Shown here: piece by piece, positions 4,855 through 64,000 of the stretch | How the letters are laid out: each line of letters begins with the position of its first letter | Position numbering within the stretch: position 1 is the stretch's first letter | From: a virus | Lineage: Duplodnaviria > Caudoviricetes | DNA length: 64,000 nt | IMG/VR virus record: IMGVR_UViG_3300033177_000258 | Direction: 5' to 3' (one strand) | The notes under the pieces: model-generated | Database searches by the model: none | What the model was told of the DNA's origin: nothing | The model's input: only the letters and a program-made list of their open reading frames with translations | Program-made: the position numbers and the translations under genes

Positions 4855-5120
4855 GCAAGACGACGGCGACGGTAGACCCGCGCGGGACGAGTCAGAAGTG
4901 CTCGCGGTGTGGGCACGTTGCGCGGGGCAACCGCGTCAGCCAGTCAGAGTTCCAGTGCCAGAAGTGCGGCTTTCGAATCAACGCTGACCTCAACGCGGGA
5001 CGGAATGTGAAGGGGAAGTACCTGGTCCGAGAGGGCAGCGCCGTCTCGGGCGGGCCGCGTCAACCGGCCTAATGCAGCGTGTTGTTTGCGGCTGCAAGCT
5101 GCCTTCGGGTAGTGGTTGAC
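4855..5120 (+). mobile_element. Orphan tnpB 3'-end/omega-RNA cassette, cognate to TnpB 43960-45066
   Basis: Near-identical to the reverse complement of ~43905-44176 (KTTATVDPRGTSQKCSRC...NADLNAGRNV); ends ...GCTGCAAGC-hairpin-GGTTGAC. Confidence 0.88.
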
Positions 5121-26863: not shown

Positions 26864-28642
26864 ATGCAGCTTGACCTCTTCGGAGAGAAGAAGCAACTCA
26901 CCTATACTTTCACCCACCACACCGTGGTGCTCAACCCGGTCGAGCCAGACCTCATCAAACTCACCGGGGGCCGCGTCACTGCTGCTGGTTTGGAAGTCCC
27001 CTACTTCCGCTGGCCCGAGGTCTCCAAAGCATTGGGCTTCGGGCTCCCCCAGGTAGACCAATTCCTTGGCGTCCTGAGCTCTGCTAAGCAGCAGGCGCCG
27101 GATGGTCTCAGCATCCCCCAGACCCCCTTCTACCACCACCAGAAAGTCGGCATCAACTTCATGTACTCAGCCCTGTCGTCCATGGGCTATGTGGCCAACC
27201 ACGACGAGCAGGGGCTGGGCAAGACCCTCCAGGCCATCGTGACGGCCGACATGGGCCGTGTGGCCTGGGGCGCCAGCAAGGTGTTGGTGCTGTGCCCGGC
27301 CTACCTGGTGCGCCAGTGGGCACGCGAAATCATCAAGTTCTCGTACAGCCCGGTGCTGGCTGTGCCGGGGGATTTCGAGGCTAAGCGCAAGGCGGAGTAC
27401 CTGGGGACGCTGGGCTACATCACCAGCATGGACAACAAGCGCCGGCTGCGCTGGGAGAAGGGCGAACCCTACTTCGTTGTGATGGGCTACGACAGCCTGC
27501 GCAGCAAGCCGATGCTGGCGGCCGCGCTGTCCCATACCTGGGACCTGGCCATCCTGGACGAAATCACCTGCGCCTACAACTACAAAACCCAGCGCGGCAA
27601 GGGTACCCGGTGGGTTCTGGGCCGAGCTCTCAAGCGCATCGGCCTGACGGGTACGCCCGTCATGAACCGCCCTATGGATGTTTGGTCGGAACTCGACCTG
27701 CTGTCGGGCATGGCCCCGCCTGAGCCCTGGTTCGTGGACCGCTACTGCGTGGTGCGCAAGACCAATGTGGAACTCAAGGGGCGGCAGGACGCAGACGGCA
27801 ACCCGGTCAACATTGACATCAGCTACATCAAGGGCTGGAAGAAGCGCAAGACGCCCGAGCTGGCTCCCGCCATCGAGCGCGTGAGCATCCGGCGCCGGCG
27901 CGCTGAGGCGACAGACCTGCCTCCCATCCAGTACCGGGTCTTGACGGTTGAGCTGGCCGACAAGCAGAAGTCTGCCTACAACAGCATCGCCGAGAGCGGC
28001 ATGGCGGTGGTGGGGAACTGTCAGATAGACGCTACCAGCAGCGACCTGACGAAGCTGACGTACCTGCGCATCGCGGCCGATGGTCTGCAGCACTGGGGGG
28101 TTCGCGCCAGCGGCAAAGCCGACGCGGCCCTGGAAATGCTCAAGGACAGCGAAGGGACCCCGACGCTCGTCTTCACGGCGTTCGAGAAGCTGGCTCACGA
28201 CATCTACGAGCGTGCCTGCAAAGAGGGTCTGCGCTGTGGCATAGCCACCGGGGAAGAGACGGCACAACAGCGCGACGAGGTGATGGTGGCGTTCCAGGAC
28301 CGGCAGGAACTTGACGTGGTGGTCACGACATACCAGGCCACCCAGTTCGGGCTCAACCTGCAGCGGGCGGAGCACGTCATCCTCTGCGGTATGATGTACA
28401 ACCCGAAGATGATGGAGCAGTCCATCACTCGCGCCCACCGTCTCGGCGGCTCCAGCAAGACGCTGGTGACCCTGCTGCTGTCGGAGGGCACCGTGGACGA
28501 CCATATCTTCAACAACATCATCGGGGACAAGGCCGAGCTCATTGAGACGCTCAAGGTGGCCGGAGACATCGAAGCCATGATGAAGCAAGAGCCGCAAGCC
28601 TACATCCCCGAGCCCAAACGGAAGCGAAAGACCAATGGGTGA
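26864..28642 (+). CDS. SNF2-family (SF2) helicase
   Basis: DEQGLGKT, LCPA, ILDE, LTGTPVMN, GLNLQ, EQSITRAHRLG. Confidence 0.9.
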   Translation: MQLDLFGEKKQLTYTFTHHTVVLNPVEPDLIKLTGGRVTAAGLEVPYFRWPEVSKALGFGLPQVDQFLGVLSSAKQQAPDGLSIPQTPFYHHQKVGINFMYSALSSMGYVANHDEQGLGKTLQAIVTADMGRVAWGASKVLVLCPAYLVRQWAREIIKFSYSPVLAVPGDFEAKRKAEYLGTLGYITSMDNKRRLRWEKGEPYFVVMGYDSLRSKPMLAAALSHTWDLAILDEITCAYNYKTQRGKGTRWVLGRALKRIGLTGTPVMNRPMDVWSELDLLSGMAPPEPWFVDRYCVVRKTNVELKGRQDADGNPVNIDISYIKGWKKRKTPELAPAIERVSIRRRRAEATDLPPIQYRVLTVELADKQKSAYNSIAESGMAVVGNCQIDATSSDLTKLTYLRIAADGLQHWGVRASGKADAALEMLKDSEGTPTLVFTAFEKLAHDIYERACKEGLRCGIATGEETAQQRDEVMVAFQDRQELDVVVTTYQATQFGLNLQRAEHVILCGMMYNPKMMEQSITRAHRLGGSSKTLVTLLLSEGTVDDHIFNNIIGDKAELIETLKVAGDIEAMMKQEPQAYIPEPKRKRKTNG

Positions 28643-29605
28643 CGCTGCCGCCTAAGCGGCTTCTCGCTTGCGCGAGCTACGTGCTGGGCGTCCCCCGGAA
28701 CTACCTGGAGCGATGACCCCAGGATACTTGTAGGTCCAGACGTTGGGCACGTCACAGCCTGGAACAAGCGCACCTTGACTCCCGATGCAGCGGATGTTGG
28801 CGGAGCCTACCACGTCACGTGGGGCGGTGAAGCCACACTGCTTGCAACGGTAGGTCCGCTGGCACTTGTTCCTAGTTCCGCAAACGGGACACGTTTGGGA
28901 ACTGTACGCCTCGCCTACGGTGATTGCTCCCGCAGTCTTGTAGTCGAGTTGCGTAATGAGCCTGCGGTTGCAGGCTTGCGATACTTGTTGGGTAGTCTTT
29001 CGAGACATCTTCTGGGACGCGTCATTGAACGGCTCACCGACGTAGCACTTGGCACCAGGGAAGGTGTCGGCGACGATGCGGGTGGCCTTGTGGGTGAGGT
29101 CTTTGACGCGATTCTCGCTCTTCTTCAGCAGCTTACGTTTACGGCGCTGGAGTCTGCCATACTGGCGAGAACCCCGGTGACAGTTCGACTGCTTGCCGCT
29201 GAGCGACGCGAGACGCTTGTTGCGCCACTGGACCGTGGCTTTGAGTTCGCGGCCCGAGACGAGCACGGCAGTCTCGCCGTCTGTGGCGGCGAGGAGGGTG
29301 TTGACACCAAGGTCTATGCCGAGGGTGGGGCCGCCTGATTGCAGAGCCATTTCGCAGTCCCATATAAGCTCCAGTTTGCCGTAGGACAGGCGAGCCTCCA
29401 TGAGGCGGCCAGCGGGCCATAGCATACGGCGCGGGATACGGATAAAGAGCGCCCCGGCACTTCCGTTAGGGAGCCTCAATTCGTAGCCGTTGATGTTGGT
29501 AACGGCTTGATTGGTGTAGATGATGTCGTGGAACTCGGGTTTGCGCCAAGGGTACTTGACTTCACGCCCATTGCGGCGCAGGGCGGCCGCAGCTCCAACA
29601 AAATA
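28639..29605 (-). mobile_element. tnpB: 5'-truncated tnpB element (IS200/IS605-derived) with intact omega-RNA end
   Basis: GIDLG, HKAT, SSQTCPVCG...CKQCG...RDVVGSANI; no proper N-terminus; ends GGCAGCGTCAC; TCAC also at the left junction. Confidence 0.82.
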
Positions 29606-29618
29606 GGTGAGATGCCCA

Positions 29619-30140
29619 ATGATGGATAATGTACCTGCCGATGTGGACCTGGTGGAGAGCGGCGCGACCTGCCCCATGTGTGGCCGAGCCACCCGCGTAC
29701 TGCTTAGCTGTTCTCTCTGTGAGACGGAAGTGTGCGAGCTTTGCATGGTGGGGCACTCAGCCCGCCACGCTCTAGAGAGCGCGCAGAACCCGGTGCCGGC
29801 AGGCTACCTGGTGCCGCGCCCCATCTGGGCAGCCATGGTTCACAAGACCCACCCCGACGTGGTGGTATGTTCTTCAAGATTCTCTGCAGCACTTTCCCCC
29901 TTGCATGTTCTGGACGGACCTGCTATTATGGGTGAGGTCGCAACGGGGGCATCCAAGCTGTACCAGGTGGCGACCATCGTTGCGCCTAACGTGGATGATG
30001 GGCCGGAGTTCATTGGAGCCTGCGAAGTCATGGCCAGCGACACGTTCATCGTAACACGCACCGCAGAACCAATCGAAGGCTATACGCAACAACAGGAGCA
30101 CGACGGATGGTTTCTTCTAAAGAGGGAGCTTGCCCCCTAA
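29619..30140 (+). CDS. Hypothetical protein with N-terminal zinc finger
   Basis: CPMC..CSLC..CELC..H. Confidence 0.55.
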   Translation: MMDNVPADVDLVESGATCPMCGRATRVLLSCSLCETEVCELCMVGHSARHALESAQNPVPAGYLVPRPIWAAMVHKTHPDVVVCSSRFSAALSPLHVLDGPAIMGEVATGASKLYQVATIVAPNVDDGPEFIGACEVMASDTFIVTRTAEPIEGYTQQQEHDGWFLLKRELAP

Positions 30141-30925
30141 CCGACGCCCAGCGGCTTGAGGTCTTCAGGCGCTATCACAAACCGCTTGTGGACTGGGCCA
30201 AACGCTTCCGTGGTGCCTCAATGGACATGGAAGACCGGGAGGCTGAGGCTCTCTGCGTGCTGTGGGAGTTCTCCGCACAGTACGACCCCAACCGCTCAGA
30301 CACCTTCTTCGCTCTCTGCACCAAACCTCTCGGCGAGCGTCTCCTGAACGCCCCGCGCAACAACGAAATGGGCGAGAGCGCCCGACAACGGCGCTACGTT
30401 CGCCGCGCCATGGCTCTCCTTTCCGAGGAAGAGCTGGCGCTGCCCCTCGGCGAACTGGTCCCCATCCTGATGAAGAAGCTCAAGTGCGACAAGGACTCCG
30501 CGTTCTCCGTGTACAACATCATCGTCTGCGGCAACGCGATGATGGGCGAGCTCGATGACGCTAAGGGCGTCGGCCAGCGAAATACGGAGACCGACCGCTA
30601 CGTCGAGAACGATTTTGCCGCGCTCTGCTTCACTGAGGCTCAGCGCCAGCTCTGCCGCTACAAAGGTCGCACCGACTGCCCTTACTGCAACGAAGCCGTC
30701 CGATACCAGTGCCCGTTCTTCTGCCTGCTCTACGCCATCGGGGCTGATGGTTGGTGGTGCGACGGCGACCGCAAGACAGGCGAGGGCATGGAGGCAACGC
30801 GCAAGGACGAGGACGAAGCGGCGAAGCAGTTGGGACTGGACCCGGCCGCCTACCGGGCGATGGTCGCCAAGGCGCGTCGGGTCATGGGGGAAGTCCAGAG
30901 GGCGCTGGCAGGCGAGCAGATATAG
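30107..30925 (+). CDS. Phage sigma-70-like RNA polymerase sigma factor
   Basis: Region 2-like LVDWAKRF....MEDREAEALCVLWE....YDPNR..TF; C-terminal HTH (EAAKQLGLD...YRAMVAKARR). Confidence 0.7.
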   Translation: MVSSKEGACPLTDAQRLEVFRRYHKPLVDWAKRFRGASMDMEDREAEALCVLWEFSAQYDPNRSDTFFALCTKPLGERLLNAPRNNEMGESARQRRYVRRAMALLSEEELALPLGELVPILMKKLKCDKDSAFSVYNIIVCGNAMMGELDDAKGVGQRNTETDRYVENDFAALCFTEAQRQLCRYKGRTDCPYCNEAVRYQCPFFCLLYAIGADGWWCDGDRKTGEGMEATRKDEDEAAKQLGLDPAAYRAMVAKARRVMGEVQRALAGEQI

Positions 30926-30934
30926 GCTGTTGCC

Positions 30935-32041
30935 TTACTGGCAACTCGCAGCTAGCCCAAGTACAGCAGCCGCCGCGTATGGCTGACCTATAGCAGCCCT
31001 GCGGCCGATTTCGACCGCAGCGAAGTGGTCGGCCGGCCCAGCGAGACCGCACGACACACAGAGAAACTGGTCGCGAGTAGGACGGTTCGCCTTCGCGACA
31101 TGACCACACCCAGGACAAGTCCGACTGGTGTTCCTGGGGTCTACCTTGACAAACGGCACGCCCGCCAAAGCAGCTTTGTACTCGACAAACGAGGCCAACT
31201 GCCAGAAGCCCCAAGAGTGAAGTGCGCGACGCTGTGCCTTGCGAACCGTTACCCGCTCGCGGATTCCCGTCAGGTCTTCTACGGAAATGCCACGCTCGGT
31301 GCCTTTGGCTTTCGCGACTACATGATTGGAGACTTCATGGTTGACGTGGCGCCCGAAACGACTCTCTCGTCCGCTTTGTTGCTTGAGCCGGCGCGTGGCC
31401 GACCTTGTGCCTTTGCTCTGGAGCCTGGCTCGCAATGACGCATGACGGCGGCGCAAGCCGTTGACTTCGGCCCCGCTGAAGTTCTCGCCATCGCTGTCGG
31501 TAGCTATGTTGACGACGCCCATGTCTACGCCGAGCCAGTCTTTAGGCTGCCCGCGCGGTGGCTCTGGAATGTCAACGACGACGCACAGGTAGAAATGTCC
31601 ATTGCGAAGTACGAGGTCCGCCTGGCCTCTGACGCCGTAAGCAGTGATGCGGTCGTGGGCGTAGCCATAGACAACCACCGGCATTTTGAGCCGGCCGGAG
31701 ACTGACAAGATAGACACTGTATCCAAGCTCCTGAACGAGAGGTTCCGTTGGTCGTAGACGACCGAGCCGTGGGGCTTGAACTTCGGTTGCTTCTTTTTGT
31801 CGCGCTTGAGAGCCTCGCAAACTTTCGCGATGGCGCGGACAGCAAGTTGGGCCGGCAAAGAGAACCGTTCTCGGGCTTCCTGGTAGGTAAGACGGTGCAC
31901 GATATTGCGGTTGGCAGAGCCGTTCTCGTAGGCTACACCGGCAATCCAATTACACGCCGTATTGAACGACTCCATGGTATGGACCAGAGCCTGATGTTGG
32001 TCGGCTGACGGCGCGAGTTTTAGCTGCAATGTGGTGTTCAT
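30935..32041 (-). CDS. tnpB: RNA-guided endonuclease TnpB, intact
   Basis: GVDMG, VEDL, TSRTCPGCG...FLCVSCG...ADHFAA; RuvC D-E-D intact. Confidence 0.93.
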   Translation of the reverse strand: MNTTLQLKLAPSADQHQALVHTMESFNTACNWIAGVAYENGSANRNIVHRLTYQEARERFSLPAQLAVRAIAKVCEALKRDKKKQPKFKPHGSVVYDQRNLSFRSLDTVSILSVSGRLKMPVVVYGYAHDRITAYGVRGQADLVLRNGHFYLCVVVDIPEPPRGQPKDWLGVDMGVVNIATDSDGENFSGAEVNGLRRRHASLRARLQSKGTRSATRRLKQQSGRESRFGRHVNHEVSNHVVAKAKGTERGISVEDLTGIRERVTVRKAQRRALHSWGFWQLASFVEYKAALAGVPFVKVDPRNTSRTCPGCGHVAKANRPTRDQFLCVSCGLAGPADHFAAVEIGRRAAIGQPYAAAAVLGLAASCQ

Positions 32042-32110
32042 CGGGTAGAAGTATCCCGTGGTGTGCCGGGTTGTGTTTGAAGTTTTTCATCAAACGATTG
32101 GGGAAGTCGT

Positions 32111-32734
32111 ATGAAGTGGGTCGGGCTTGATTGGGATTGGGTCACGGGCGACTGTGCCCTGCTGCTTGACCATACCGTTGCCTGTGCCAGGATGTGTAGG
32201 TTCTGCGCCGGCAAGTTCGAGTTTGGGCGCGGCATCCGGGACCCGCAGGACGAAAGCTGGAAGCCCAAGCTGGAAGCCATCCGGGCCAAGCTGCACGAGT
32301 TGCGCATCATCCCTCCCATCATCATGCGGGACAGCCATGCCCAGATTCTGAGCCATGTTGAACGCGGGGATGTTGTTTACCACATTGACGAACACGACGA
32401 CTGGCCCTGGCACAAGTTCATGTACGACCTGGACTCGGAGGACGGCACAGACGACGGCATGAAGCGAGCCATTATGGAACACAGCCGTCTGGGTAGCCGC
32501 CGGCCCTGGTCTTACCCAACCTGTGCTAATTGGCGCAGTATCGCCCTGCACAAGGGTGTAGACACCTTCCAGTCTGAGCCCTGCGAAATCCGGGATGGCT
32601 TGACCTGCCGCCTGTTCGTGTGTCGCTCTGCACCGTATACCTCGGCCGACCTTGACGGCAAGCTGCTCGAACTCGTGACGGGTCTCGGGCTTCCGATTGA
32701 CCTCTACTTTGGACCTGATGGTAGGAGAAGCTGA
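32111..32734 (+). CDS. Hypothetical protein (arginase/UPF0489-like metal motif)
   Basis: LDWDW, DSHA, HIDEHDD, CRSAPYT. Confidence 0.5.
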   Translation: MKWVGLDWDWVTGDCALLLDHTVACARMCRFCAGKFEFGRGIRDPQDESWKPKLEAIRAKLHELRIIPPIIMRDSHAQILSHVERGDVVYHIDEHDDWPWHKFMYDLDSEDGTDDGMKRAIMEHSRLGSRRPWSYPTCANWRSIALHKGVDTFQSEPCEIRDGLTCRLFVCRSAPYTSADLDGKLLELVTGLGLPIDLYFGPDGRRS

Positions 32735-33720
32735 TGCTTTACAAAATGTACAAGCCGAAGAACTTTGCCGACATGCTGGGCGACGCACCGGCTTTGGTGC
32801 ACGCCATCGCCAACCGCAAGCGCGCCGGCTACAACGTTCATGCGCTACTCTTCTACGGTCAGAAGGGGACGGGCAAGACTGCCTCGGCCCAGATACTGGC
32901 TCGGGCCCTGAACTGCGAGAAATACGACGAGGCCATCGGCCCCTGCAACGCCTGCAACGGTTGTCGGCTCTCGGAGAACGAGCCCATACTCCACCAGTTC
33001 GACGCCGCCGCCATGTCTGGCGCCGAGCAGGCGCGCGAGGCCACCGCGTCCATGCGCTCCATCCCATCGGGTCGGAATGTCACGTACATCTTCGATGAAG
33101 CGCACAACATGTCGGACAAGGCCAAGGACGTACTACTGCTCCCCATCGAGGACCCCCGCGACCGCTTGACCATCGTGCTCTGCACCACCGAACCTCAAGC
33201 CATCAAGGACACCATCTTCAGCCGCTGTGCCCGCGTCGCGTTCCATGCTGTGCCGGCCGACCAACTCTCCGGCCTGGCCCGGCGCGTTCTGGCTGAGCAG
33301 GCGCCCGCCCTGCAGTACACCGACGCTGACATCGAGCGGGTCGTGACCCTATCGGGCGGCAGCCCCCGCGACCTGCTGTCGCTGCTGGAGACCCCCATCG
33401 CCGTGGGTTCCATGAGCGCCGCCTTGAACAACCTGGGGACGCCTGTGGCTGATGACCTGCTCCGCAACCTGCGGACTGGCGACCTGATGGCGGCTGCCAA
33501 GCTGATGCGGGACCGCCGCAATGAGTTCAGCAACCCCGTCCAGCAGTTGACCGAAATCTTCGGCAAGCTCGTGGACGAGTACGAACAGACCAAGGACCCT
33601 ACCATCGGGCGCGGAGCCGATGCGCTGATGGAGGGGCTCGTGAAAGCCGGCCGCGTGGGCAACAAGGGGCTTGCCTCGTGGCTTATCCACTACGCGCTCC
33701 TGGGAGCCGCTACGCGCTAA
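32734..33720 (+). CDS. dnaX: DNA polymerase III gamma/tau-like clamp loader
   Basis: LYKMYKPKNFAD, GQKGTGKT, ARALNC..PCNACNGC, FDEAH, CTTEP, SRC, GSPRD. Confidence 0.9.
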   Translation: MLYKMYKPKNFADMLGDAPALVHAIANRKRAGYNVHALLFYGQKGTGKTASAQILARALNCEKYDEAIGPCNACNGCRLSENEPILHQFDAAAMSGAEQAREATASMRSIPSGRNVTYIFDEAHNMSDKAKDVLLLPIEDPRDRLTIVLCTTEPQAIKDTIFSRCARVAFHAVPADQLSGLARRVLAEQAPALQYTDADIERVVTLSGGSPRDLLSLLETPIAVGSMSAALNNLGTPVADDLLRNLRTGDLMAAAKLMRDRRNEFSNPVQQLTEIFGKLVDEYEQTKDPTIGRGADALMEGLVKAGRVGNKGLASWLIHYALLGAATR

Positions 33721-33998
33721 TGTCTAGAGTACCCGAGTGGGAACCCAAGCGCCTGACGGCCTTTGAGAAGGCCCTCATCGCTACCGGCCGCGCCCACATC
33801 GCCTTCGACATGGTGATGAAGCGCTGTGACGTGGAAATCAGACTGCTATGCACCGAGACCCAAAAGGCAGTGGCTATCCGCACCGTGGCCACCCAGTGCA
33901 TGAACAAGGTCGGTCTGTACCACAAGCTGGGCAAGTCTTGGGACGAAGCCCATGACGCGCTCTGCGACCTACTGAGGATGCCTCATGCCACCCGCTAA
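33720..33998 (+). CDS. Hypothetical protein
   Basis: ORF translationally coupled to dnaX. Confidence 0.5.
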   Translation: MSRVPEWEPKRLTAFEKALIATGRAHIAFDMVMKRCDVEIRLLCTETQKAVAIRTVATQCMNKVGLYHKLGKSWDEAHDALCDLLRMPHATR

Positions 33999-34620
33999 GG
34001 CCCGCTGCAAAATCATCACAGGTGACCCCGCCGCCATCGAGGGCTACATCATCTTCCACGGTCTCATGCGAGTGGGGCCCGAGGAAGCTATGGAGCTGAT
34101 GGTCTGCAACTTGGCACCACCCAACCTGGCTGTGGTGGGGTCATCCAAAGAGGTCGCGTCTGTGGGACGCCGGCGTCTCTCTCACATACCGCTGGTCCTG
34201 TGTTGCGCTAAGCCGGGGGACGAGCTCAAGAAGCTGGGCATGCTGGAAGAGCTCAAGAAGCCGAAGCCGGGGCCGGCCCTGGCGCAGAAGTGGCTCAAGA
34301 AGTACGGGCTCGACAGCCGTTACGTGCCCTACCTGCAGCACCTGGACGAGCTCAACCTGAACGCCGCCATCCTCTCCGGGTTGGCCACCGGGCGCTTCGA
34401 CATCGTGCCGCCCATGCCCACCCCAGAGGCGTTCCACCAGGCCCTGCGCACCGGGACCCCGCTCCCTGACGGTTGGCAGAAGATGGAACACCTCTACTTT
34501 GCTCTGTCCTACTTCGACGGGCTCTCTCCGCGCGCGGCCCGCATCCTGAGCGTCGCCCCTGACCTGCCGCTTGACCTGCTGGGGGTCATGGCGACATATG
34601 TCCACAGAAGGTTCGGATAG
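33985..34620 (+). CDS. Hypothetical protein, possibly a clamp-loader delta-like subunit
   Basis: 211-aa ORF; suggestion rests on position next to dnaX only. Confidence 0.45.
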   Translation: MPPAKARCKIITGDPAAIEGYIIFHGLMRVGPEEAMELMVCNLAPPNLAVVGSSKEVASVGRRRLSHIPLVLCCAKPGDELKKLGMLEELKKPKPGPALAQKWLKKYGLDSRYVPYLQHLDELNLNAAILSGLATGRFDIVPPMPTPEAFHQALRTGTPLPDGWQKMEHLYFALSYFDGLSPRAARILSVAPDLPLDLLGVMATYVHRRFG

Positions 34621-34622
34621 CC

Positions 34623-35195
34623 ATGTCTGCCGCATACCACTTCAAGACCCAACACCCGGCCATCCGCGAATGGGAGCAACGCTTCGCTCTACGCCTGGCC
34701 CAGATGGACATTCTCTTCGGATGTCTCAAGCTGCTGGCGGTTGACCACATAGATGACCGTGAGCTCAACAAAGCATACGGCGACCTGCTGGTCTGGTACC
34801 GCTCACTCAAAGACACTCGGGTGGACTACATGGTGGCCGACCTGAAGTGCGACATCTGGGAGCTGCGCAACCGGGAGACCGGCAACCTGGCCATCGAGAC
34901 CGGGACGACCTACCCCGATGGCACCCACGTGCCTCGGAACCTCGACATGATGGTCTGGCACTGGCGTGCGCTGGATGACACGGTGTACCTCTACGTGCCG
35001 TCACGGTTGGACCTGACGGGTAAGCCTACCATTGACACCGTGAACAAAGACAATACCGGGCAGGAGCTCTACCGCTCCCACAATGCGCTGTACCCTGCAG
35101 CCCAACTCTGCGTCCCCCGCATCACTGGCTTCTTCGGGCAGTCTTGGGCTGGCGAGACCACGCGCCTCAAGGAAGAGACAAAGGACTGGGCCTGA
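34623..35195 (+). CDS. Hypothetical protein, PD-(D/E)xK-like
   Basis: VDY..ADLKCD....TGNLAIE pattern. Confidence 0.5.
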   Translation: MSAAYHFKTQHPAIREWEQRFALRLAQMDILFGCLKLLAVDHIDDRELNKAYGDLLVWYRSLKDTRVDYMVADLKCDIWELRNRETGNLAIETGTTYPDGTHVPRNLDMMVWHWRALDDTVYLYVPSRLDLTGKPTIDTVNKDNTGQELYRSHNALYPAAQLCVPRITGFFGQSWAGETTRLKEETKDWA

Positions 35196-35321
35196 AATGA
35201 GCGATATAGTTGGAGAGCTTCTTCTGAGAGAGGCCGAACTGTATTCGCAGCAGGTGTTGGCAGGGAGTAAGCCGGTTGCTTCCATGCAGTTCCACTCTAG
35301 ACATCTGGACGCGGTAACGGA

Positions 35322-35403
35322 GCAGGGCTGCTATAGGTCAGCCATACGCGGCAGCGGCCATATCGCTAGCTGCGAACCCTGGGGTTGCACCATGGTAGTT
35401 GAC
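35322..35403 (+). ncRNA. Orphan TnpB omega-RNA cassette, cognate to TnpB 30935-32041
   Basis: GCAGGGCTGCTATAGGTCAGCCATACGCGGC...GCTAGCTGCGA matches the 3' end of that tnpB; ends GGTAGTTGAC. Confidence 0.8.
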
Positions 35404-35440
35404 CAAGAGCTGGGACACCGGCGCAAGGGAGTGTTGTTGG

Positions 35441-37453
35441 TTGGCTACTAATCGTCTCAATGATTTAAGTAATACGGAGTGGGTTCGCTTTACGAAGAGT
35501 TGGGAAATCATCAACCCATCCCAGCGCAGCAAGGACAAGCGCGCGCACCCGGCCGCCTACCCCGAGGAGCTTGTGCTCCCCTACATCAGCTTCTTTACCA
35601 AGCAGGGCGGCTGGGTCTTGGAGCCGTTCCTGGGGAGCGGCAGCACCCTCATCGCCGCCATGAAGCTCGGGCGGAACGCGGCCGGCATCGAGCTCAACCC
35701 CCACTTTGCCGGCATCGCGCGCGACCGCATCCGAGACGCCAGGAAGCGCCTGGACGTGTCAGAACGGGTCGCCCTGGCCACCGGGCCCCAAGTGGACCAG
35801 CACGTGCTCTGCGGCGATTCTCGCTTCGCTGTGGACATCCTGGGCAAGTCCCTGCCCGGCCAGCAGTTCGACTACTGCATCACCAGCCCGCCGTACTGGG
35901 ATATGCTACACCAGAAGGGCGCCGAGAACCAGCAGAAGCGGCGCGACGAAGGCCTCCAGACGGTCTACAGCGACAGCACCGATGACATGGGTAACATCCA
36001 TGACTACGACCAGTTCGTGACGGAGCTGGTGCAGATGTTCGCCAGGCTGGCGCCCCTGTTCAAGCCGAAAGCCTACCTGACCGTCGTCCTGCAGAACGTC
36101 CGCAAGGGCCCCAAGGTGTACCCGCTGGCCTGGGACTTCGCCATCCAGCTTGACAAGACCGGCGCGTTCGACCTGAGCAACGAGAAGTTGTGGTGTCTCC
36201 CACCAGGGGAGAAGGTTTGGACGACGCGCGGCTCCCTACCCATAGAAGATGTCAACGAAGGCGATGAGGTGCTGTCACACGATGGGGCTCTGCACCGAGT
36301 CACTTCCACTATGTCCCGCCCATGCGAAGGTCCGGTGGTGTCGCTGAAGCCCAAATTGCTCAATCGCGCAGTACGGCTCACGCCCGAGCACGAAGTCTTG
36401 GCTATGCCCAGGGCGACTTACTTTCACGCCAACGGCAAGCGTTTCTTCGAGCCGTTCGCCAACGCTTATCGGCGGGGTCCGCGATGGGTGCCTGCGGGGG
36501 AGCTCAAAGACGGCGACCTTGTGGCTTTCCCGGTTCCTACCGACGAGCGAGACGCAGGACCGATTGATGTGCTGGCCCATATGATGGAGCCCGAAAGGTG
36601 GGCTATTGATGGGGACAGGCTACGCCTGGACAGAGTTGGGGGCAGGGTTTCGACGCTGCCGAGAACCATCGAGCTCACAGACGAGTTCATGGAGTTGGCT
36701 GGATGGTATATCGCCGAAGGTAGCTCCGGCGTTTCTGGGGTTTGCATCGCGAACCATGCGGAAGATGTGAATGTCCGGGTCGCTTGCCTAGTCAGGAAAG
36801 TGTTTGGCCTCCCCGTCAACACCACCCGGCGCGGTGTCTGGTGTTACAGCCGCATGGCTGGTCAGTTGCTGTCTTCGTTGTTTGGGGCAGACTCATACAC
36901 CAAGCGCATCCCCGCCGCCTGGCTGCACCTGCCGGTTGACAGGCAGAAGCATCTGCTGCGCGGGATGTGGGGAGGTGACGGGCATAGCCGCCACGACATG
37001 GTGGGTTACACCACCGCGTCAGAAGAGCTGGCCTTGGCAACTATGTATGTCTCAGCCAGGTGCGGGGCTGTTCCCTCCATTCGGGTCGAGTCGGGCAAGT
37101 ACCACCACCTCCAGTTTAGGGCTACCGACGCCCACAACATGCGGTCGCAACTGGCGCTTCCCGAGGAGCAGGAGGGCGAGTTCCGGCGCAGCCAACATTG
37201 GTTCAGGGATGGATTGGTATGGATTCCTCTCAGTCGCGTCTCTCTTGAGACCTACTCTGGCCCGGTCTACAACCTGTCGGTACAGGAAGCGAACAGTTAT
37301 ACCACATCGGCTTTCGTCGTCCATAATTGCCAAGACAACAAGAGCCTCTTCCCATTCGCGGTGGGCTCGGCGTTCGTCGCCAACCAGCATCACCACTACT
37401 GCCTGAACTTCCGCAGACCCGTACCCAACACAGCAGAGGTAACAGACGAATGA
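35441..37453 (+). CDS. DNA methyltransferase (N4-C type, SPPY), intein-containing
   Basis: NRLNDLS..EW..FTKSW, HPAAYP, LEPFLGSGST, GIELN, TSPPYW; TTG start after RBS AAGGGAG. Confidence 0.88.
   Translation: MATNRLNDLSNTEWVRFTKSWEIINPSQRSKDKRAHPAAYPEELVLPYISFFTKQGGWVLEPFLGSGSTLIAAMKLGRNAAGIELNPHFAGIARDRIRDARKRLDVSERVALATGPQVDQHVLCGDSRFAVDILGKSLPGQQFDYCITSPPYWDMLHQKGAENQQKRRDEGLQTVYSDSTDDMGNIHDYDQFVTELVQMFARLAPLFKPKAYLTVVLQNVRKGPKVYPLAWDFAIQLDKTGAFDLSNEKLWCLPPGEKVWTTRGSLPIEDVNEGDEVLSHDGALHRVTSTMSRPCEGPVVSLKPKLLNRAVRLTPEHEVLAMPRATYFHANGKRFFEPFANAYRRGPRWVPAGELKDGDLVAFPVPTDERDAGPIDVLAHMMEPERWAIDGDRLRLDRVGGRVSTLPRTIELTDEFMELAGWYIAEGSSGVSGVCIANHAEDVNVRVACLVRKVFGLPVNTTRRGVWCYSRMAGQLLSSLFGADSYTKRIPAAWLHLPVDRQKHLLRGMWGGDGHSRHDMVGYTTASEELALATMYVSARCGAVPSIRVESGKYHHLQFRATDAHNMRSQLALPEEQEGEFRRSQHWFRDGLVWIPLSRVSLETYSGPVYNLSVQEANSYTTSAFVVHNCQDNKSLFPFAVGSAFVANQHHHYCLNFRRPVPNTAEVTDE
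36194..37327 (+). mobile_element. Intein (378 aa) with LAGLIDADG endonuclease
   Basis: W|CLPPGE...LTPEHEV...AGWYIAEGS...LLRGMWGGDG...VYNLSV..ANSY...VHN|C. Confidence 0.92.
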
Positions 37454-37821
37454 CACAGCACGCCGTCCAAGAGTTCCTGGTCCGGGGCTTGACTGACCTG
37501 GGCAAGCGCATCAGCACCTTCGTGTCCACCCGAGGCTTCTTCACCCCTCGGTCCATCAACACAGACCTTTGCCCGGTGGCGCTCACCAACGGCGACGCCA
37601 TGCTGGGTAAGCTCATGCTCGTCAACACCGAGCTCTGCGAAGCAGCAGAAGCGGCGCGCGACGGAGACATGGAGAACTTCAAGGAAGAGCTGGCGGATGC
37701 CGTCATCCGCATCCTGGACATCTGCGGCGCCTGCGGCATTGACATTGAGGAAGTTATTGCTCAGAAGATGCTGGTGAACGTGGGCCGGCCGCCGAAGCAC
37801 GGACGCAAGACCACCTTGTAG
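37450..37821 (+). CDS. MazG-like nucleotide pyrophosphohydrolase
   Basis: KLMLVNTELCEAAEAAR...EELADAVIRILD...KM..N..RP.KHG. Confidence 0.85.
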   Translation: MTQHAVQEFLVRGLTDLGKRISTFVSTRGFFTPRSINTDLCPVALTNGDAMLGKLMLVNTELCEAAEAARDGDMENFKEELADAVIRILDICGACGIDIEEVIAQKMLVNVGRPPKHGRKTTL

Positions 37822-43959: not shown

Positions 43960-45066
43960 TTAGGCCGGTTGACGCGGCCCACTCGGAACGCCTATAGCCT
44001 CCCGAGTTAGGTACTTCCCCTTCACATTCCGTCCCGCATTGAGGTCGGCGTTGATTCTGAAGCCGCACTTCTGGCACCGGAACTCTGACTGGCTGACGCG
44101 GTTGCCCCGCGCGACGTGTCCGCACCGCGAGCATTTCTGGCTCGTCCCGCGCGGGTCTACCGTCGCCGTCGTCTTGCCGCCTTCCTCGGCTTTGTAGGCC
44201 GTGAACGCGAACAGTTGGGCGAAGCTCCACCCGTGGAGACGACGGTTGCCATGCCGGCCGAAGTCAGCGCGGTCACGGATTCCAGTCAGGTTCTCGAAGA
44301 CGAGTACGGCTCCTGGGTCAACGGACTCTACAAGGCGGCGGGACAGTACGTGGTCGCAGTCGCGGCGAAACCTAGCCTGCTTGCCCGAGAGCTTACGTAG
44401 CTTACGACGGGCGGAGCGAGTGGCCTTTGCCTGCAAGGCTCTGCGAAGACGGAAGTACCGCTGTTCGACGTTGCGCCAGCGCCGCTCACCGAAGAACTGG
44501 GCTTCGGAGGTGACGGCCGGGCGGACAATGCCCAAGTCTACACCGACAACCTCGCCGGTTGCGGTGTAGACGGGGGCGGGGGACTCTACAACGACGTGGA
44601 GCCAGAACTGGTTGCGACGGTAGACGAGTTCGGCCGAGGTGGGCTTCCAGGTCTGGAGCCGGGTGAAGCTGGCGTCGAATGTGACGCGCTGGCGACCGGC
44701 GACCGTGGCGAGGGTGGCCCAGCCTTCGGTGAGGGAAATGGTGTAGGACTTTACATCATACCTGACGCTTTGGCATCGCGACTGCGGGAGTGTCGCCGCC
44801 TTTCCTTTGGCGAGACGCACTCTTACGCTCTGAAGAGCTTCTGTGGCTTTGGCTCTGGAAGAGCATACCAGGCGGGAGTGCAACGATGGGTATTGCTCGC
44901 GCAGGGGGTAGTAGGTAGCATGGTGAATGGCCACGCCATTGGTTGTCTTGTTCTTCCAACCGAACTCGGCAGCCACGTTGAAGCAGGCCGTGTACTGCTC
45001 CATGGTAGCCAGGAGAGCTTCACGACCTGCTTTCACATCGAGTTGGACGATGATGGTACGCTGCAT
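43960..45066 (-). CDS. tnpB: RNA-guided endonuclease TnpB, intact; omega-RNA end at ~43905
   Basis: GVDLG, FENL, TSQKCSRCG...FRCQKCG...NADLNAG; downstream GTCAACC...GCTGCAAGC...GGTTGAT. Confidence 0.93.
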   Translation of the reverse strand: MQRTIIVQLDVKAGREALLATMEQYTACFNVAAEFGWKNKTTNGVAIHHATYYPLREQYPSLHSRLVCSSRAKATEALQSVRVRLAKGKAATLPQSRCQSVRYDVKSYTISLTEGWATLATVAGRQRVTFDASFTRLQTWKPTSAELVYRRNQFWLHVVVESPAPVYTATGEVVGVDLGIVRPAVTSEAQFFGERRWRNVEQRYFRLRRALQAKATRSARRKLRKLSGKQARFRRDCDHVLSRRLVESVDPGAVLVFENLTGIRDRADFGRHGNRRLHGWSFAQLFAFTAYKAEEGGKTTATVDPRGTSQKCSRCGHVARGNRVSQSEFRCQKCGFRINADLNAGRNVKGKYLTREAIGVPSGPRQPA

Positions 45067-48491: not shown

Positions 48492-48616
48492 GGCTCGGGC
48501 CTCCTTCAGGTGTGTGCTTACACCTATTGGCGCACGATTGCGGATTTCTCTGACACTGCTCCGCGCGACACGGAATACTTCTATGTGACAGAACAAAGTT
48601 CCTATACGAGCCAAGA

Positions 48617-48904
48617 ATGAACCGCACGCTCGCCGTCAAACTCAGTCCGAATGAAGTGACCCGCGTGGCGCTCCTGGCAACCATGGAGCAATACACGGCC
48701 TGTTTCAATGCGGCTGCCGAGTTTGGTTGGGAAGGCAAGACGGATAACGGCGTCGCGCTCCATCATGGTACCTACTACCCACTGCGAGAGCGGTTTCCTC
48801 AACTCCCGGCAGAGCTTGTTTGCTCGTCTCGCGTGAAAGCTACCGAAGCCCTCAAGTTCGTTCGCGCCCGCATCCGCAAGGGGATGAACTTTGGCCAGGC
48901 TTGA
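48617..48904 (+). pseudogene. tnpB: tnpB N-terminal fragment
   Basis: MNRTLAVKL...LLATMEQYTACFN...HHGTYYPLRE, homologous to the N-terminus of 43960-45066. Confidence 0.85.
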
Positions 48905-54387: not shown

Positions 54388-54474
54388 TTACTCTCCTTAG
54401 TCGGGGTGGCCCGCCCGATGGGCGGTCTCATACTACTCAGCGCACGATTGCGGGATTTCTCTGACACCGCCTCG

Positions 54475-54953
54475 CGCGAGCCGCGTCCGCGACCTGACTC
54501 ACAAGGCTACGCGCACGATTGCGGATGCTTTTCCTGGCGCAAAGTGCTATGTGGGCGAGCCATTCAACGACGCGGCCCAGAAGATGGGTCGTCGTCAGGC
54601 CCAACAAGTCTCCCAGGCGTGCAATGCCCGCCTAATCACGCAACTCGGCTACAAGACTGCGGGAGCAATCACCGTAGGCGAGGCGTACAGTTCCCAAACG
54701 TGTCCCGTTTGCGGAACTAGGAACAAGTGCCAGCGGACCTACCGCTGCAAGCAATGCGGCTTTACCGCCCCACGTGACGTGGTAGGCTCCGCCAACATCC
54801 GTTGCATTGGTATGCGCGGCGAGCTTGTTCCAGGCTGTGACGTGCCCAACGTCTGGACCTACAAGTATCATGGGGTCACTGCTCCAGGTAGTTCCGGGGG
54901 ACGCCCGGCACGTAGCTCGCGCAAGCGAGAAGCCGCTTAGGCGGCAGCGTCAC
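54475..54953 (+). mobile_element. tnpB: tnpB 3' fragment with omega-RNA end (copy of the 28639-29605 family)
   Basis: RVRDLTHKATRTIADAFPGAKCYVGEP...RSSRKREAA*; ends GGCAGCGTCAC. Confidence 0.85.
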
Positions 54954-59987: not shown

Positions 59988-60334
59988 GCTTGCGGTCTTC
60001 CGGTGTCAATGCCACTGGTTCATCACTCCTTGGTAGAAACGCAGAACGCCCCACAACGAGACCGGCTGTGTGGGGGAAGCCCCTCCGAACAGTGTCCCCA
60101 TGCTCGGGCCGGCTCATATCACAGCAGGTCTCGGTTGCGGGCGCTGCGCGCCCTTCTGCCTGCCTCCCTGCGGGAGCCACGATGTGGGGCGTTCATCATC
60201 AGCTTACATCATTGGGCGCACGATTGCGGGCGCTGCGCGCCCTTCTGCCTGCCTCCCTGCGGGAGCCACGATTGCGGTCAGGCCATCGCGTCAAGCCGGT
60301 GCAGGGAGTCCGTCGCCCCGCCAGTGCAGACGGG

Positions 60335-60496
60335 TTAGTCTTCACCTTCCACCAGCACGACCTGCCCGTTGTGGTTGTCGGTCCACGCCTTGCCCACCAG
60401 CGAGCCATCGGCCCGCCGCACCTCCACGGCGCTCTCCCCGGCCTTCAGAGCCGCCTGCGCGGTTTCACGTGAAACGCAGTACAGGGTGCCCTTCAT
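60335..60496 (-). CDS. Small hypothetical protein
   Basis: RBS AAGGAG before MKGTLY. Confidence 0.5.
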   Translation of the reverse strand: MKGTLYCVSRETAQAALKAGESAVEVRRADGSLVGKAWTDNHNGQVVLVEGED

Positions 60497-60957
60497 ACGC
60501 TCTGCTCCTTCTTGGTCCACGGATAGGGGTAGCCCCCGAGCAGGCCGTCCACGTACTCCTTGAGGCTCAGCCGGTGGCACTCGTTGCCGATGATGAGGGT
60601 CTCCTTGGTGAAGCAGGCGGGCAGCTTGGGCAGGAACTTGAGCCGGGTGTGCTTGTTGGGCTTGCTGGTGCTCTCCAGACAGCCTACCACTTCCCAGGTC
60701 AGCCTGTCCACGTTGGCCCGCAGGTACACGGTGTAGGACTTGAAGCGCCGGGGGTGGTTCAACTTGCCCCAGACGCCCTCGGTGTCGCCTCCGCTCAGGT
60801 GGAACACGTGAGTCGGCGGCTTAGCATCACCCGCAGCACAGAGCCCGGCGATGTCCTCGGGGTCCAGGTAGGCCCCCACAAAGTGCGAGCCGCTCAGCCG
60901 CCCCCGCGTCATCTCGCAGCGCAGTTGCCGCTCATGTTGCCAGACAATCTCTTGCAT
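60493..60957 (-). CDS. Hypothetical protein
   Basis: RBS GGAGG; headed by the repeat element. Confidence 0.6.
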   Translation of the reverse strand: MQEIVWQHERQLRCEMTRGRLSGSHFVGAYLDPEDIAGLCAAGDAKPPTHVFHLSGGDTEGVWGKLNHPRRFKSYTVYLRANVDRLTWEVVGCLESTSKPNKHTRLKFLPKLPACFTKETLIIGNECHRLSLKEYVDGLLGGYPYPWTKKEQSV

Positions 60958-60987
60958 CAGGTTGACCTCCCGGTCGGTAGTCTATAC

Positions 60988-61992
60988 TCAGGTGCGCACG
61001 ATTGCGGGCGCTGCGCGCCCTTCTGCCTGCCTCCCTGCGGGAGCCACGATTGCGGGCGCTGCGCGCCCTTCTGCCTGCCTCCCTGCGGGAGCCACGATTG
61101 CGGGCGCTGCGCGCCCTTCTGCCTGCCTCCCTGCGGGAGCCACGATTGCGCCCATCTTCCGGCGTTCGATGAGGCCTCCGAGGCGGCTGAACTGCAGGTC
61201 GCGCACGGTCGGCACGGGTACCTCGTTCAGCAGCGCCGTCTTGAGCCAGTCAATCACCTTGTCAGGGACCTTCAGGCGTCCAAACCCGGCCCGCGCGTAC
61301 CACGTCCGCTTGAACTTGCCCTCCACCGGGAAAGGCCCGGTGTCCCCGTTGTAGCTGTAGCCGTGCCCGATGACGACCTGCGCCCCCTCGCCGAGCTTGG
61401 GCCGCATCACCAGCGCCGCCGCCATCCCCAGGAACTCCCGCTCGCCGTCAGGGTCCAGCGCCACGAGGTCGGTTGCCAGCCCGAGCGCCAGAGCCTCATT
61501 CGGTGTCAGCGCCACGTCCAGCACGGCCTTGACGGTCTTCACCGGGTAGCCCACGCTCGTATGCGGAGCCGCCCCCACGCAGTCGGTCCACTCGCCGGCC
61601 GGGAAGGTCCCGCCCGAGACGTTCAACTGCAGCGTCACTCCGTTGACCATCACCTTGGGGTAGCTCGCGCCCCACTCGGGCACCACGGTCACGTCTTCCT
61701 TGCGCACGATGCAGTACAGGTCAATGCCCGGCTTAGCGGTCCAGAACTTCGACCCGTTCTGCCGGTAGTGCTTGTACTCATGGACGCGGCAGACCCGCGC
61801 CAGGAGCCGGGGGTGCTCCAGCTTGCTCAGCGCCGTGCCATAGGACGCCCCCATGACCAGCATCAGGTAGGGAGCCCCGTTGAACGTCACGTGGTACGCC
61901 CCCCGCTCGCCCGGCAGCGAGGTGAACGTCACCTTCTCGGTATCGGCATCGAGCCGCACGGGCTCATTCTCCACGATGATATGCTTAGCCAC
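60988..61992 (-). CDS. Hypothetical protein whose C-terminus reads through three 48-bp repeats
   Basis: GTG start after GGAGG, downstream of the repeat element at 62031; part of ORF 60988..62607. Confidence 0.6.
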   Translation of the reverse strand: MAKHIIVENEPVRLDADTEKVTFTSLPGERGAYHVTFNGAPYLMLVMGASYGTALSKLEHPRLLARVCRVHEYKHYRQNGSKFWTAKPGIDLYCIVRKEDVTVVPEWGASYPKVMVNGVTLQLNVSGGTFPAGEWTDCVGAAPHTSVGYPVKTVKAVLDVALTPNEALALGLATDLVALDPDGEREFLGMAAALVMRPKLGEGAQVVIGHGYSYNGDTGPFPVEGKFKRTWYARAGFGRLKVPDKVIDWLKTALLNEVPVPTVRDLQFSRLGGLIERRKMGAIVAPAGRQAEGRAAPAIVAPAGRQAEGRAAPAIVAPAGRQAEGRAAPAIVRT

Positions 61993-62092
61993 GGTAGGGA
62001 ACCTCCGGTGTGTAGTGGTTACACTACTGCGTGCACGATTGCGGGCGCTGCGCGCCCTTCTGCCTGCCTCCCTGCGGGAGCCACGATTGCGG

Positions 62093-62607
62093 CCACAGAC
62101 GGCTGCGCCGCCCATCGGGGTACACGAGGTACACCTGGTCTTGGATTCCGTTCTGGCCCCCGCCGGACGAGGACGGCTGCGTCCGCTCCAGATACCCCAG
62201 CCGCTCCTGCCCCGCCTAGCCTCAGCCTCCGAGGGATACGTGCCTTCCAGCGGATACGGGTGCCTGTCAAAGGTGTCGTACCCCTCCGGCCTCCACACTT
62301 CCGGCGCCACGGCGCACGATTGCGGCCGCGAAGGCTCCGCCCGCCGCACGTAGTCCCGCCGCATCAGCCACGCCGGGAACCCCCGGTTGGACGGCAGCTT
62401 CCGCCCATCCAGCCCGCTCAGGTCAAAGTCGGTCGGCGCCAGCGTCACCAGCGTCGGCGTCGGCTCCGGTGAACGCTTGCTCACGACACGCCCATCTACC
62501 ACCACCGTCTGGTAGGGATAGGCGAAGCACAGCTTGTAGCCCCTGCGGTCGCTCAGGTCCTTGTGGGCCGGGTCCTTGAGAATGACGTACTCAGCCGCTA
62601 CCCGCAC
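62093..62607 (-). CDS. Hypothetical protein, in frame with the downstream gene through a 48-bp repeat; end uncertain
   Basis: RBS GGAGG before MRVAAEY. Confidence 0.4.
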
Positions 62608-63302
62608 GACCTCCCCGGCGCGCCCCGTAAGCAGTCTTCAGCATCGCCCTATCCTTCCCAGAGGGATTCGCCGGGGGAGAAGAATCACCCCACCATCAGA
62701 ATCATCATCCTACAGCCCACTGCCTTCTCATACGGCTCCCCCGTATAGGTAGGCAGTATCATCACCCGGTCATCACCAGGTCATCACCATAGTGCTCACA
62801 CTGGTCAGAGAAAGCGTCAGGATGCTCAGCGTAGTACGCTTTGGTACAGCAGGCCACCTGTACCCAGATACGTTCCTGTGACGGGTCCGTGCTACCTGCC
62901 TCCCTGCGGGAGCCACGATTGCGGGCGCTGCGCGCCCTTCTGCCTGCCTCCCTGCGGGAGCCGATGGGGAACCGTCCGAACAACCGTTCAGACAACCGAA
63001 TCGGTGTACCGATACCCTACCCCCAACAACCGAATCGATTGCGGAGTGTCAGATTCCCGTTGACATATTTCTTGGTTTCGTACCCGGCCAGTGGTCGGGT
63101 AGCCGGCAGCGCGTATTCTACGTAGTAGAATAGGGGAGCAGGATTGCGGGTGGGAATGGGAAAAAAGGGGAGGTGGTGGGAGGGGAAAAGGAAAAAACGT
63201 TCTGCCAGAGGCACAAAACTCTCTGTTCGCCCCTGTTCACCAACGCTCGAACGCTCGAACGCTCGTCCATCCGCCCGAATCCACGCGCAATCCTCCCTTA
63301 GT

Positions 63303-63396
63303 CGGCCCATTCTTCTCTTCCCGGCCCATTCTTCTCTTCCCGGCCCATTCTTCTCTTCCCGGCCCATTCTTCTCTTCCCGGCCCATTCTTCTCTTC
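63303..63396. repeat. 19-bp tandem repeat x5
   Basis: CGGCCCATTCTTCTCTTCC. Confidence 0.95.
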
Positions 63397-63548
63397 AGCG
63401 TTCCATCGCGCCGTTCAGCGTTCCATCGCGCCGTTCAGCGTTCCATCGCGCCGTTCAGCGTTCCATCGCGCCGTTCAGCGTTCCATCGCGCCGTTCAGCG
63501 TTCCATCGCGCCGTTCAGCGTTCCATCGCGCCGTTCAGCGTTCCATCG
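63394..63548. repeat. 20-bp tandem repeat x7 plus partial copies
   Basis: TTCCATCGCGCCGTTCAGCG. Confidence 0.95.
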
Positions 63549-64000
63549 GGGCGTCACAGACCGTTACCAGGCCGGCGCAGGCCCCACAGGATGCTTCGGC
63601 GTACTTGCGTACCGTTCCCGAGCGCCTGAGAGGCCCCAAGCGGTGCCCGTGAGCCCTGGCCTGGGCTCTAGGTCTGGCATGGCGTGGTTCACCTGTTCCT
63701 TCCGGTTCTTTTCCGGTTCTTGGTGGCTTCTTGGCAAGAAAACATCCCTCTATACCGGGGGAAACGTCCAAATGTACCCGTTTGGGGGGGCAAACTACCG
63801 GAAGGGCCCTTCCGGTTCTTGCCTATCCCACTGCTGTGCGCACGATTGCGGGCGCTGCGCGCCCTTCTGCCTGCCTCCCTGCGGGAGCCACGATTGCGGG
63901 CGCTGCGCGCCCTTCTGCCTGCCTCCCTGCGGGAGCCACGATTGCGGGCGCTGCGCGCCCTTCTGCCTGCCTCCCTGCGGGAGCCACGATTGCGGGCGCT

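Follow-up and report, generated by a model that had tools for sequence, protein, structure and literature searches.

What is a short, gene-less piece of a TnpB-type transposon doing between two conserved genes of a large phage? The question is raised by nucleotides 35206-35403 of a 64,000-nucleotide stretch of viral DNA (Duplodnaviria; Caudoviricetes; IMG/VR record IMGVR_UViG_3300033177_000258), which was analysed over its whole length and is called the window here. The piece lies upstream of a gene for an N6/N4 DNA methyltransferase (MTase) and resembles the 3' end of tnpB2, a tnpB gene of the same window. The initial annotation regarded it as a stand-alone omega-RNA of 82 nt that is used in trans by TnpB2, encoded 4 kb away, and aimed at the MTase gene, whose own 5' end would have been recoded. 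In our analysis, the insert is best explained, with a probability of roughly 60%, as a gene-less, decayed derivative of a TnpB-type IS200/IS605 element, in other words an ordinary transposon remnant. The parts of the locus, including the open reading frame (ORF) of tnpB2, are listed below.

30921-32088, minus strand: resident tnpB2 element; ORF 30935-32041, right end at 30921, left boundary beside TTGAT (32089-32093, minus strand)
34623-35195, plus strand: conserved phage gene of 190 aa; C-terminus ...ETKDWA and stop, with a T-K-x-W word (ACA AAG GAC TGG)
35196-35205, plus strand: left flank of 10 nt, AATGAGCGAT, separating the insert from the stop of the 190-aa gene and ending GAT, like the TTGAT beside tnpB2
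35206-35317, plus strand: left part of the inserted block, lacking recognisable TnpB or left-end similarity and polymorphic between strains
35318-35403, plus strand: recognisable remnant of a TnpB-type IS200/IS605 right end, with the last TnpB codons, stop TAG (35393-35395), stems A, B and a weak C, and terminus GGTAGTTGAC
35404-35423, plus strand: bases at the guide position, CAAGAGCTGGGACACCGGCG, which are the right-end flank; identical in six related contigs
35414-35440, plus strand: 27 nt before the MTase start, with a Shine-Dalgarno sequence AAGGGAG at 35425-35431; a possible relic of the junction before insertion
35441-37453, plus strand: N6/N4 DNA methyltransferase gene, TTG start, 670 aa (the public call is also 670 aa), with a Hint and LAGLIDADG intein at about aa 250-630
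35489-35509, plus strand: proposed target-adjacent motif (TAM) and target-like site, TTTAC GAAGAGTTGGGAAATC, in MTase codons 17-23; codon 22 is GAC in the related contigs L032 and L033

An insertion between the 190-aa gene and the MTase

Contigs of a related lineage (L005 and L007-L011, 64-70% identity) carry, in this order, a 273-aa gene, a clamp-loader gene, a 211-aa gene, the 190-aa gene, 6 nt and a 282-aa MTase, and they are without the cassette, tnpB and the intein. Because just 6 nt lie between the 190-aa gene and the MTase in this syntenic relative, 35196-35440 represents an insertion. The MTase N-terminus itself, MATNRLNDLSNTEWVRFTKSWEIINP, is judged native to its family, as it is conserved across that family. 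An inversion between two inverted repeats was considered as the origin of the arrangement and rejected, the present gene order being syntenic with L005.

The left edge of the insert was placed by a strain difference. In the sequencing run SRR27197515, the contig with the 190-aa gene (L006) departs from the window sequence exactly after position 35205, and the 30 nt beyond it, up to the contig end, are identical to tnpB2. On the strength of this junction, 35205/35206 is taken as the left boundary of the insert, the left part of which differs between strains, and such variability would fit gene conversion by tnpB2. The MTase contig of the same run (L032) starts within the common core; its stem C (CCAGGG) is perfect, and codon 22 of its MTase is GAC. 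All of the close relatives (L028-L033, six contigs from at least five samples) share the right end, the flank and the start of the MTase with the window.

Among the contigs of four runs covering 30000-37600, no joint skipping the cassette was seen; these contigs break at the 28-31-nt repeat and their coverage gaps are uninformative. The phage collection contained nothing that matched 34600-36400, the N-terminal part of the MTase had only distant matches in an IMG/VR scan, and the 190-aa protein had no match in the metagenome scan and only two homologue clusters among 5.8 billion proteins.

Another possible history is that the element once split the junction of the 190-aa gene and the MTase, and that unequal recombination, either between T-K-x-W words or with a diverged co-infecting phage, rearranged it. 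The outcome would be a duplicated junction and a foreign MTase start with a lower GC content at third codon positions (GC3), and the similarity between the flank and the MTase would be real homology with no present function. The sequence 35414-35440, when aligned ungapped and anchored at the start codon, agrees at 16/27 positions with the end of the relative's 190-aa gene plus the spacer, compared with 3-11 at other gene starts. This score has a probability of about 2e-4 per position, and 27 of about 128,000 window positions score as high. These 27 nt may therefore be left over from the former junction, and it becomes ambiguous where the flank came from. The presence of three AAG-NNN-TGG-G words (at 35181, 35405 and 35495) and the loss of BLASTN homology to the relative between 35023 and 35489 would also suit such a scar. 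However, the alignments of the guide-position bases to the end of the 190-aa gene fall in conflicting registers and are individually weak, and no intermediate genome was found. We therefore consider a rearrangement scar quite improbable.

The right end and its boundary

The homology of the insert to tnpB2 is strongest at 35322-35358 on the plus strand, where 37 nt match 30966-31002 on the minus strand at 95% identity with 28 nt exact; no such match is expected by chance. This bears out the correspondence of 35322-35403 with the 3' end of tnpB2 that the initial annotation had described, and homology can be recognised over about 35311-35376 (approximately 66 nt at 84%), in addition to the terminus. 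When read in the TnpB frame, the copy encodes RAAIGQPYAAAAISLAANPGVAPW followed by a stop (tblastn E 5e-6), and it is homologous to the 3' end of a tnpB ORF, as is the case for right ends of the TnpB type of IS200/IS605. The copy ends with GGTAGTTGAC at 35403, after which the sequence continues with CAAGAGCTGGGA.

For the right-end comparison, four TnpB relatives with 50-57% identity were used, one from a viral contig (L004) and three from metagenome-assembled genomes (MAGs) of Saccharibacteria, Anaerolineae and Acidobacteriota (L012, L013 and L014, respectively). Their right ends have a hairpin and then GGTAGTTGAC or GTTTAC. The terminus of L012 and L013, the former two bacterial MAGs, is identical to GGTAGTTGAC, and their flanks diverge immediately beyond it. 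Since the copy carries exactly this terminus, 35403 is, by homology, the genuine right end.

On the other side, no similarity to TnpB or to a left end was found upstream of 35318 when 35150-35450 was compared with TnpBs and left ends by tblastn and blastn. Palindrome-associated transposable elements (PATEs) have two ends with subterminal hairpins and no ORF; here the right end is seen, and 35206-35317 shows no left-end similarity. The 84-aa ORF at 35197-35451, a gene call of the Joint Genome Institute, has no Pfam match and a GC3 of only 0.64. No sigma-70-like promoter or terminator was found in 35000-35600. Rfam, which may lack this type of omega-RNA, gave no family at threshold on either copy and nothing at permissive E-values.

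A family pseudoknot that is out of register in the insert

The window contains three intact tnpB genes, all on the minus strand, at 28652-29746 (tnpB1), 30935-32041 (tnpB2) and 43960-45066 (tnpB3), and three gene-less right-end modules, all on the plus strand, at 4855-5120 (solo3), 35206-35403 and 54474-54953 (solo1). In this family, the final 5-7 nt of the right end are paired with the stem-A loop; ten other copies show covariation of this pairing, so that a clean pseudoknot supported by covariation is now available for this omega-RNA family. The pairs include the following.

L012 and L013: loop GTCAAC, terminal GTTGAC
L004: loop GTAAAC, terminal GTTTAC
L014: loop GTAAA, terminal TTTAC
tnpB1 and solo1: loop GTGACGT, terminal GCGTCAC
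tnpB3: loop GTCAACC, terminal GGTTGAT
solo3: loop GTCAACC, terminal GGTTGAC
Resident tnpB2: loop TATAGGT, terminal GCCTATA

The 3' end of tnpB2 is without GTTGAC, as had been pointed out together with a possible CCTATA register, and because its terminus GCCTATA pairs with its own stem-A loop TATAGGT, the right end of the resident element at 30921 is differently ended but intact.

The copy at 35318-35403 joins a tnpB2-type loop (CTATAGGT) to a GTTGAC tail. The only sequence that can pair with this tail is an out-of-register GTCAGC, which overlaps the 3' strand of stem A, the two pairings being mutually exclusive. Stems A and B are present; in stem C (CCCTGG/CCATGG) there is a C.U mismatch, which L032 does not share. 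The fold of the copy is no better than that of shuffled sequences (z -0.9 vs -2.6 to -3.4 for the others). What remains of the proposed stand-alone omega-RNA is a right end with an omega-RNA 3' module and a correct boundary, but not its competence, as the full set of stems A-C with the pseudoknot is not formed and no 5' scaffold can be recognised. If the window strain makes an RNA from this copy, that RNA is probably not a competent omega-RNA.

Taken as a remnant, the insert probably arose when an element inserted 10 nt past the stop of the 190-aa gene, before the MTase, in an ancestor of the phage lineage. Only the last 86 nt or so can still be recognised, as the final TnpB codons, stems A-C and the terminus GGTAGTTGAC. 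The core at 35322-35358 would have been homogenised with tnpB2, probably by gene conversion, leaving a tnpB2-type stem-A loop fused to a tail of another type. The bases at the guide position would then be mere flank, as they are at every IS605 right end.

The remnant could still have a use if its omega-RNA, together with the resident TnpB, targeted the empty site (AATGAGCGAT joined directly to CAAGAGCTGGGACACC) in co-infecting phages that lack the insert. Such ordinary homing in trans would drive the retention and spread of the insert, and its likeness to the MTase would be irrelevant. The topology is the standard one of IS605, the 5-mer at the left junction (GCGAT) ends in GAT like the TTGAT beside tnpB2, and none of the close relatives, which come from at least five samples, lacks the insert; in the literature, trans-acting omega-RNAs of PATEs and non-restorative homing into phages or plasmids have been discussed. 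The defects in the pseudoknot and scaffold of the copy do not fit well with this possibility, however, and the metagenome scan contained no empty-site allele. The close relatives are strains about 99% alike, too similar to show selection. Homing into the empty site is therefore regarded as unlikely.

Is the flank a guide to the MTase?

The proposal that the insert is aimed at the MTase requires a working omega-RNA, loaded in trans, with a seed of about 12-16 nt against MTase codons 18-23 of competitor phages without the cassette. It predicts an MTase allele with TTCAC followed by CAAGAGCTGGGAGATC, so that a cassette-less MTase would read TTCACCAAGAGCTGGGAC. The resident allele differs from the guide at seed positions 1 and 7, and that of the sole cassette-less relative at positions 1 and 4. 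In its widest form, the phage TnpB would be an RNA-guided nuclease for free-standing homing or for the exclusion of competitors, supplied with dispersed gene-less omega-RNAs that carry 12-16-nt seeds against conserved neighbour genes of related phages. The resident genes would be synonymously recoded for self-immunity, and the MTase module would be intact in SRR27197515 and decaying in the window strain.

A number of observations support such targeting and weigh against the insert being only a remnant. The bases CAAGAGCTGGGA agree with MTase GAAGAGTTGGGA, 90 nt away, at 10/12 positions in frame; the site follows TTTAC at 35489-35505, as the initial annotation had reported, and both differences are indeed synonymous. 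In L032 and L033 the MTase site reaches 13/16 (p about 0.002); the three mismatches fall at positions 1, 7 and 15, and one of these changes the amino acid. The bases at the guide position are invariant in the six related contigs (the strains being about 99% alike), and SRR27197515, which has a full-length tnpB2-like scaffold and a perfect stem C, retains the same flank. A scan of the six right-end flanks of the window for nearby paralogues that differ by wobble changes only found one for two of them, the 35403 module (p about 0.005) and solo3 (p about 0.04).

The codons at the MTase start also count on this side. GC3 is 0.40 in codons 2-21 and 0.91 in codons 22-250. According to the initial annotation, relatives without the cassette should not share an A/T-rich start, and the cassette-less relative has no such dip (0.65 at the start vs 0.64 baseline). 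Where the amino acids of the two MTases are identical, the same codon is used in 2/11 cases at the start and in 26/53 further on. The guide copy has the GC-ending codons typical of the MTase body, the resident copy A/T-ending ones, and the relative has TTCAC at the site. In addition, the catalytic residues of TnpB2 are intact, and free-standing homing with sequence substitutions is known for phage protein endonucleases (PMC13565253).

Against this, the match to the MTase ends after 12 nt, does not continue past position 16 and is not the best in the window for 16-mers or 20-mers. The MTase site scores 12/16 and 13/20, whereas sites at 38758 (plus strand) and 48108 (minus strand) reach 14/16. 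There are 11 other sites with at least 10/12 in the window (7.1 expected), and the chance of a 12/16 site within 200 nt on either side is about 0.026. Counting the final 5 nt of the right end makes the MTase site the closest 21-mer match of the whole window (16/21, with p about 4e-4), but these 5 nt belong to the transposon end, and the match is therefore not homology by descent. The T-K-x-W word that ends the upstream 190-aa gene places this word on both sides of the insert, which confounds the resemblance to the MTase. For four of the six right-end flanks there is no paralogue of the kind described, and there is no obvious route from a transposon flank to a guide for a gene that lies wholly downstream.

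The start of the MTase is A/T-ending as claimed, but the sharp reversion at the site is not seen. The codons follow a gradient instead, with 1/10 GC-ending in codons 2-11 and 10/14 in codons 12-25. Because this gradient is concentrated in codons 2-11, most of the A/T-ending codons lie 20-50 nt upstream of the proposed target. Low-GC3 starts also occur in other genes of the window, such as the 272-aa gene (0.3 in the first 10 codons) and the ORF at 668-1855 (0.3 in the first 20). It is plausible that the dip was caused by selection for an unstructured start once the insertion had broken the tight coupling to the upstream gene.

The motif and the predicted allele also fail to agree with the proposal. 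TTGAT lies directly before the left boundary of tnpB2, from which we infer it to be the TAM of TnpB2, rather than the TTCAC that had been suggested or TTTAC. The predicted ancestral allele TTCACCAAGAGCTGGGA has 13 matches in IMG/VR, none of which is in an MTase. The 20-mer at the guide position has 13 exact matches in metagenome contigs, all in unrelated bacterial genes (lysS and others) encoding KSWDTG, with no phage empty site among them, and the 18-mer at this position has no match in IMG/VR. Together with the mismatched pseudoknot and the missing 5' scaffold of the window strain, these results make a guide aimed in trans at the MTase doubtful. The wider reading, in which TnpB serves homing or exclusion and resident genes are recoded, is unlikely to a similar degree, as it relies on a short match of marginal significance and is contrary to the structural evidence. 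With the insert as a transposon remnant, chance most likely accounts for the resemblance to MTase codons 18-21, T-K-S-W being a coding word written in the preferred codons of this genome.

Two further observations concern the MTase gene. Its intein, at 36190-37330, is absent from the relatives at 64% identity, and L032, from SRR27197515, has an extra MTase gene of 263 aa directly downstream.

Resident tnpB elements and other gene-less modules

The source of the window is a large phage of at least 215 kb, since contigs with the same MTase reach 215 kb, and the stretch is present in sludge, wastewater and digester runs of many studies. No tnpA was found among the ORFs scanned in the window. For each intact tnpB there is, on the plus strand, a paralogous right end without a gene, with 86-95% identity over part of its length.

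The tnpB2 protein has OrfB_IS605 and Cas12f-like TNB domains, and when it was aligned to Cas12f/TnpB structures the RuvC D-E-D triad and the zinc finger (CxxC...CxxC) were in place. The genome therefore encodes an intact TnpB of the same scaffold type as the insert. Deleting 30921-32088 in silico gives an ORF that ends ...GTC GTA TGA and overlaps the ATG of the next gene; at present, the TAG stop of the neighbouring 272-aa gene falls inside the right end of tnpB2. The tnpB1 and tnpB2 elements are antisense, each at the extreme 3' end of a gene, and the stops of the 592-aa gene (28640-28642) and the 272-aa gene (30923-30925) come from their respective right ends. The syntenic relative L005 lacks a 207-aa gene that lies at 32111-32734, between tnpB2 and the clamp-loader gene; this gene may have arrived with or beside the tnpB2 element. 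The omega-RNA region of tnpB2 (30928-31021, minus strand) has a weak Rfam match to Chloroflexi-1 RNA (15.6 bits vs a gathering score of 80), and the nearest TnpB relatives include one Anaerolineae MAG.

The other two gene-less modules are as follows.

4855-5120, plus strand: solo3, the third module; 89% identity to tnpB3 (43960-45066), stem C capped by UUCG, GGTTGAC tail, pseudoknot intact
54474-54953, plus strand: solo1, the second module; 86% identity to tnpB1 (28652-29746), with left-end-like sequence beginning ATTTCTCTGACAC in front of it

The insertion of solo3 was placed, by left-end homology, 9 nt past a stop codon. The bases after its right end were considered as the native C-terminus of the upstream gene, and this was rejected: comparison with homologues identifies the native C-terminus as the functional one, and the post-right-end bases encode no more of it than V-D-V-Y.

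The start of the left end is retained in solo1, where it adjoins the phage motif GCGCACGATTGCGG. At 48545-48791 there is a fragment made up of a left end and 5' tnpB3-like sequence, and both this fragment and solo1 start with ATTTCTCTGACAC immediately after the motif (48520-48560 and 54430-54480). The motif has about 20 copies between 42 and 64 kb in the repeat-family listing, and it occurs in arrays of 48-nt tandem units at 60100-64000; it may serve the phage as a promoter or regulatory site and at the same time be a hotspot for insertion. Tandem repeats of 19-20 nt are found at 63284-63590. GTCAT was considered as a TAM of the tnpB3 family and rejected, as tnpB3, solo1 and the 48545 fragment become homologous at their left ends only from 15 nt further in, where the flanks disagree. 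The comparison of solo1 with tnpB1 (54474-54953 vs 28639-29118) is a mosaic, with the 5' 200 nt or so about 75% identical, the differences being mostly synonymous, and the 3' 290 nt or so 97% identical, which suggests gene conversion or omega-RNA constraint. The 129-aa ORF at 54551-54940 in solo1 still scores as a TNB domain.

Comparison with known systems

If the insert is a remnant, it is a well-documented example of how IS200/IS605 TnpB elements, and derivatives of them without a gene, build up and exchange sequence within a very large environmental phage. PATE-like derivatives of IS200/IS605 encode omega-RNAs that require TnpB in trans (Meers et al. 2023, PMC10055086). The insert is like these elements in being gene-less, in keeping a right end with an omega-RNA 3' module whose flank would be the guide, and in having a full tnpB elsewhere in the genome, so that any activity would be in trans. 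Unlike them, it has no recognisable left end or subterminal hairpin, its scaffold is truncated and chimeric, and it lies in a phage of at least 215 kb rather than in a bacterial chromosome.

The resident element can be compared with ISDra2 TnpB and its omega-RNA (Karvelis 2021; 8EXA, 8H1J). In both, the omega-RNA overlaps the 3' end of tnpB and the guide-adjacent nucleotides are in a pseudoknot; the inferred TTGAT of tnpB2 is the TAM of ISDra2, and the D-E-D triad and zinc finger of TnpB2 align. The differences are that TnpB2 scores only 34 bits against ISDra2 TnpB, that there is no tnpA in the window and that the left end of the tnpB2 element is very short (47 nt).

Homing of TnpB into plasmids or phages through the presence or absence of the transposon is discussed in a 2026 review (PMC13565253), whose list of TnpB homing modes does not include an RNA-guided one that works through substitutions in an adjacent gene. 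If the targeting reading were true, the locus would provide the first counterpart, guided by RNA, to the free-standing homing endonucleases known from T-even phages (Seg and Mob; 'intronless homing'). As with those genes, there is a mobile cassette between two conserved genes, and the adjoining gene has a variant of the possible target. The putative nuclease here would, however, be RNA-guided and encoded 4 kb away, and the resemblance to the target is a match of 12-16 nt.

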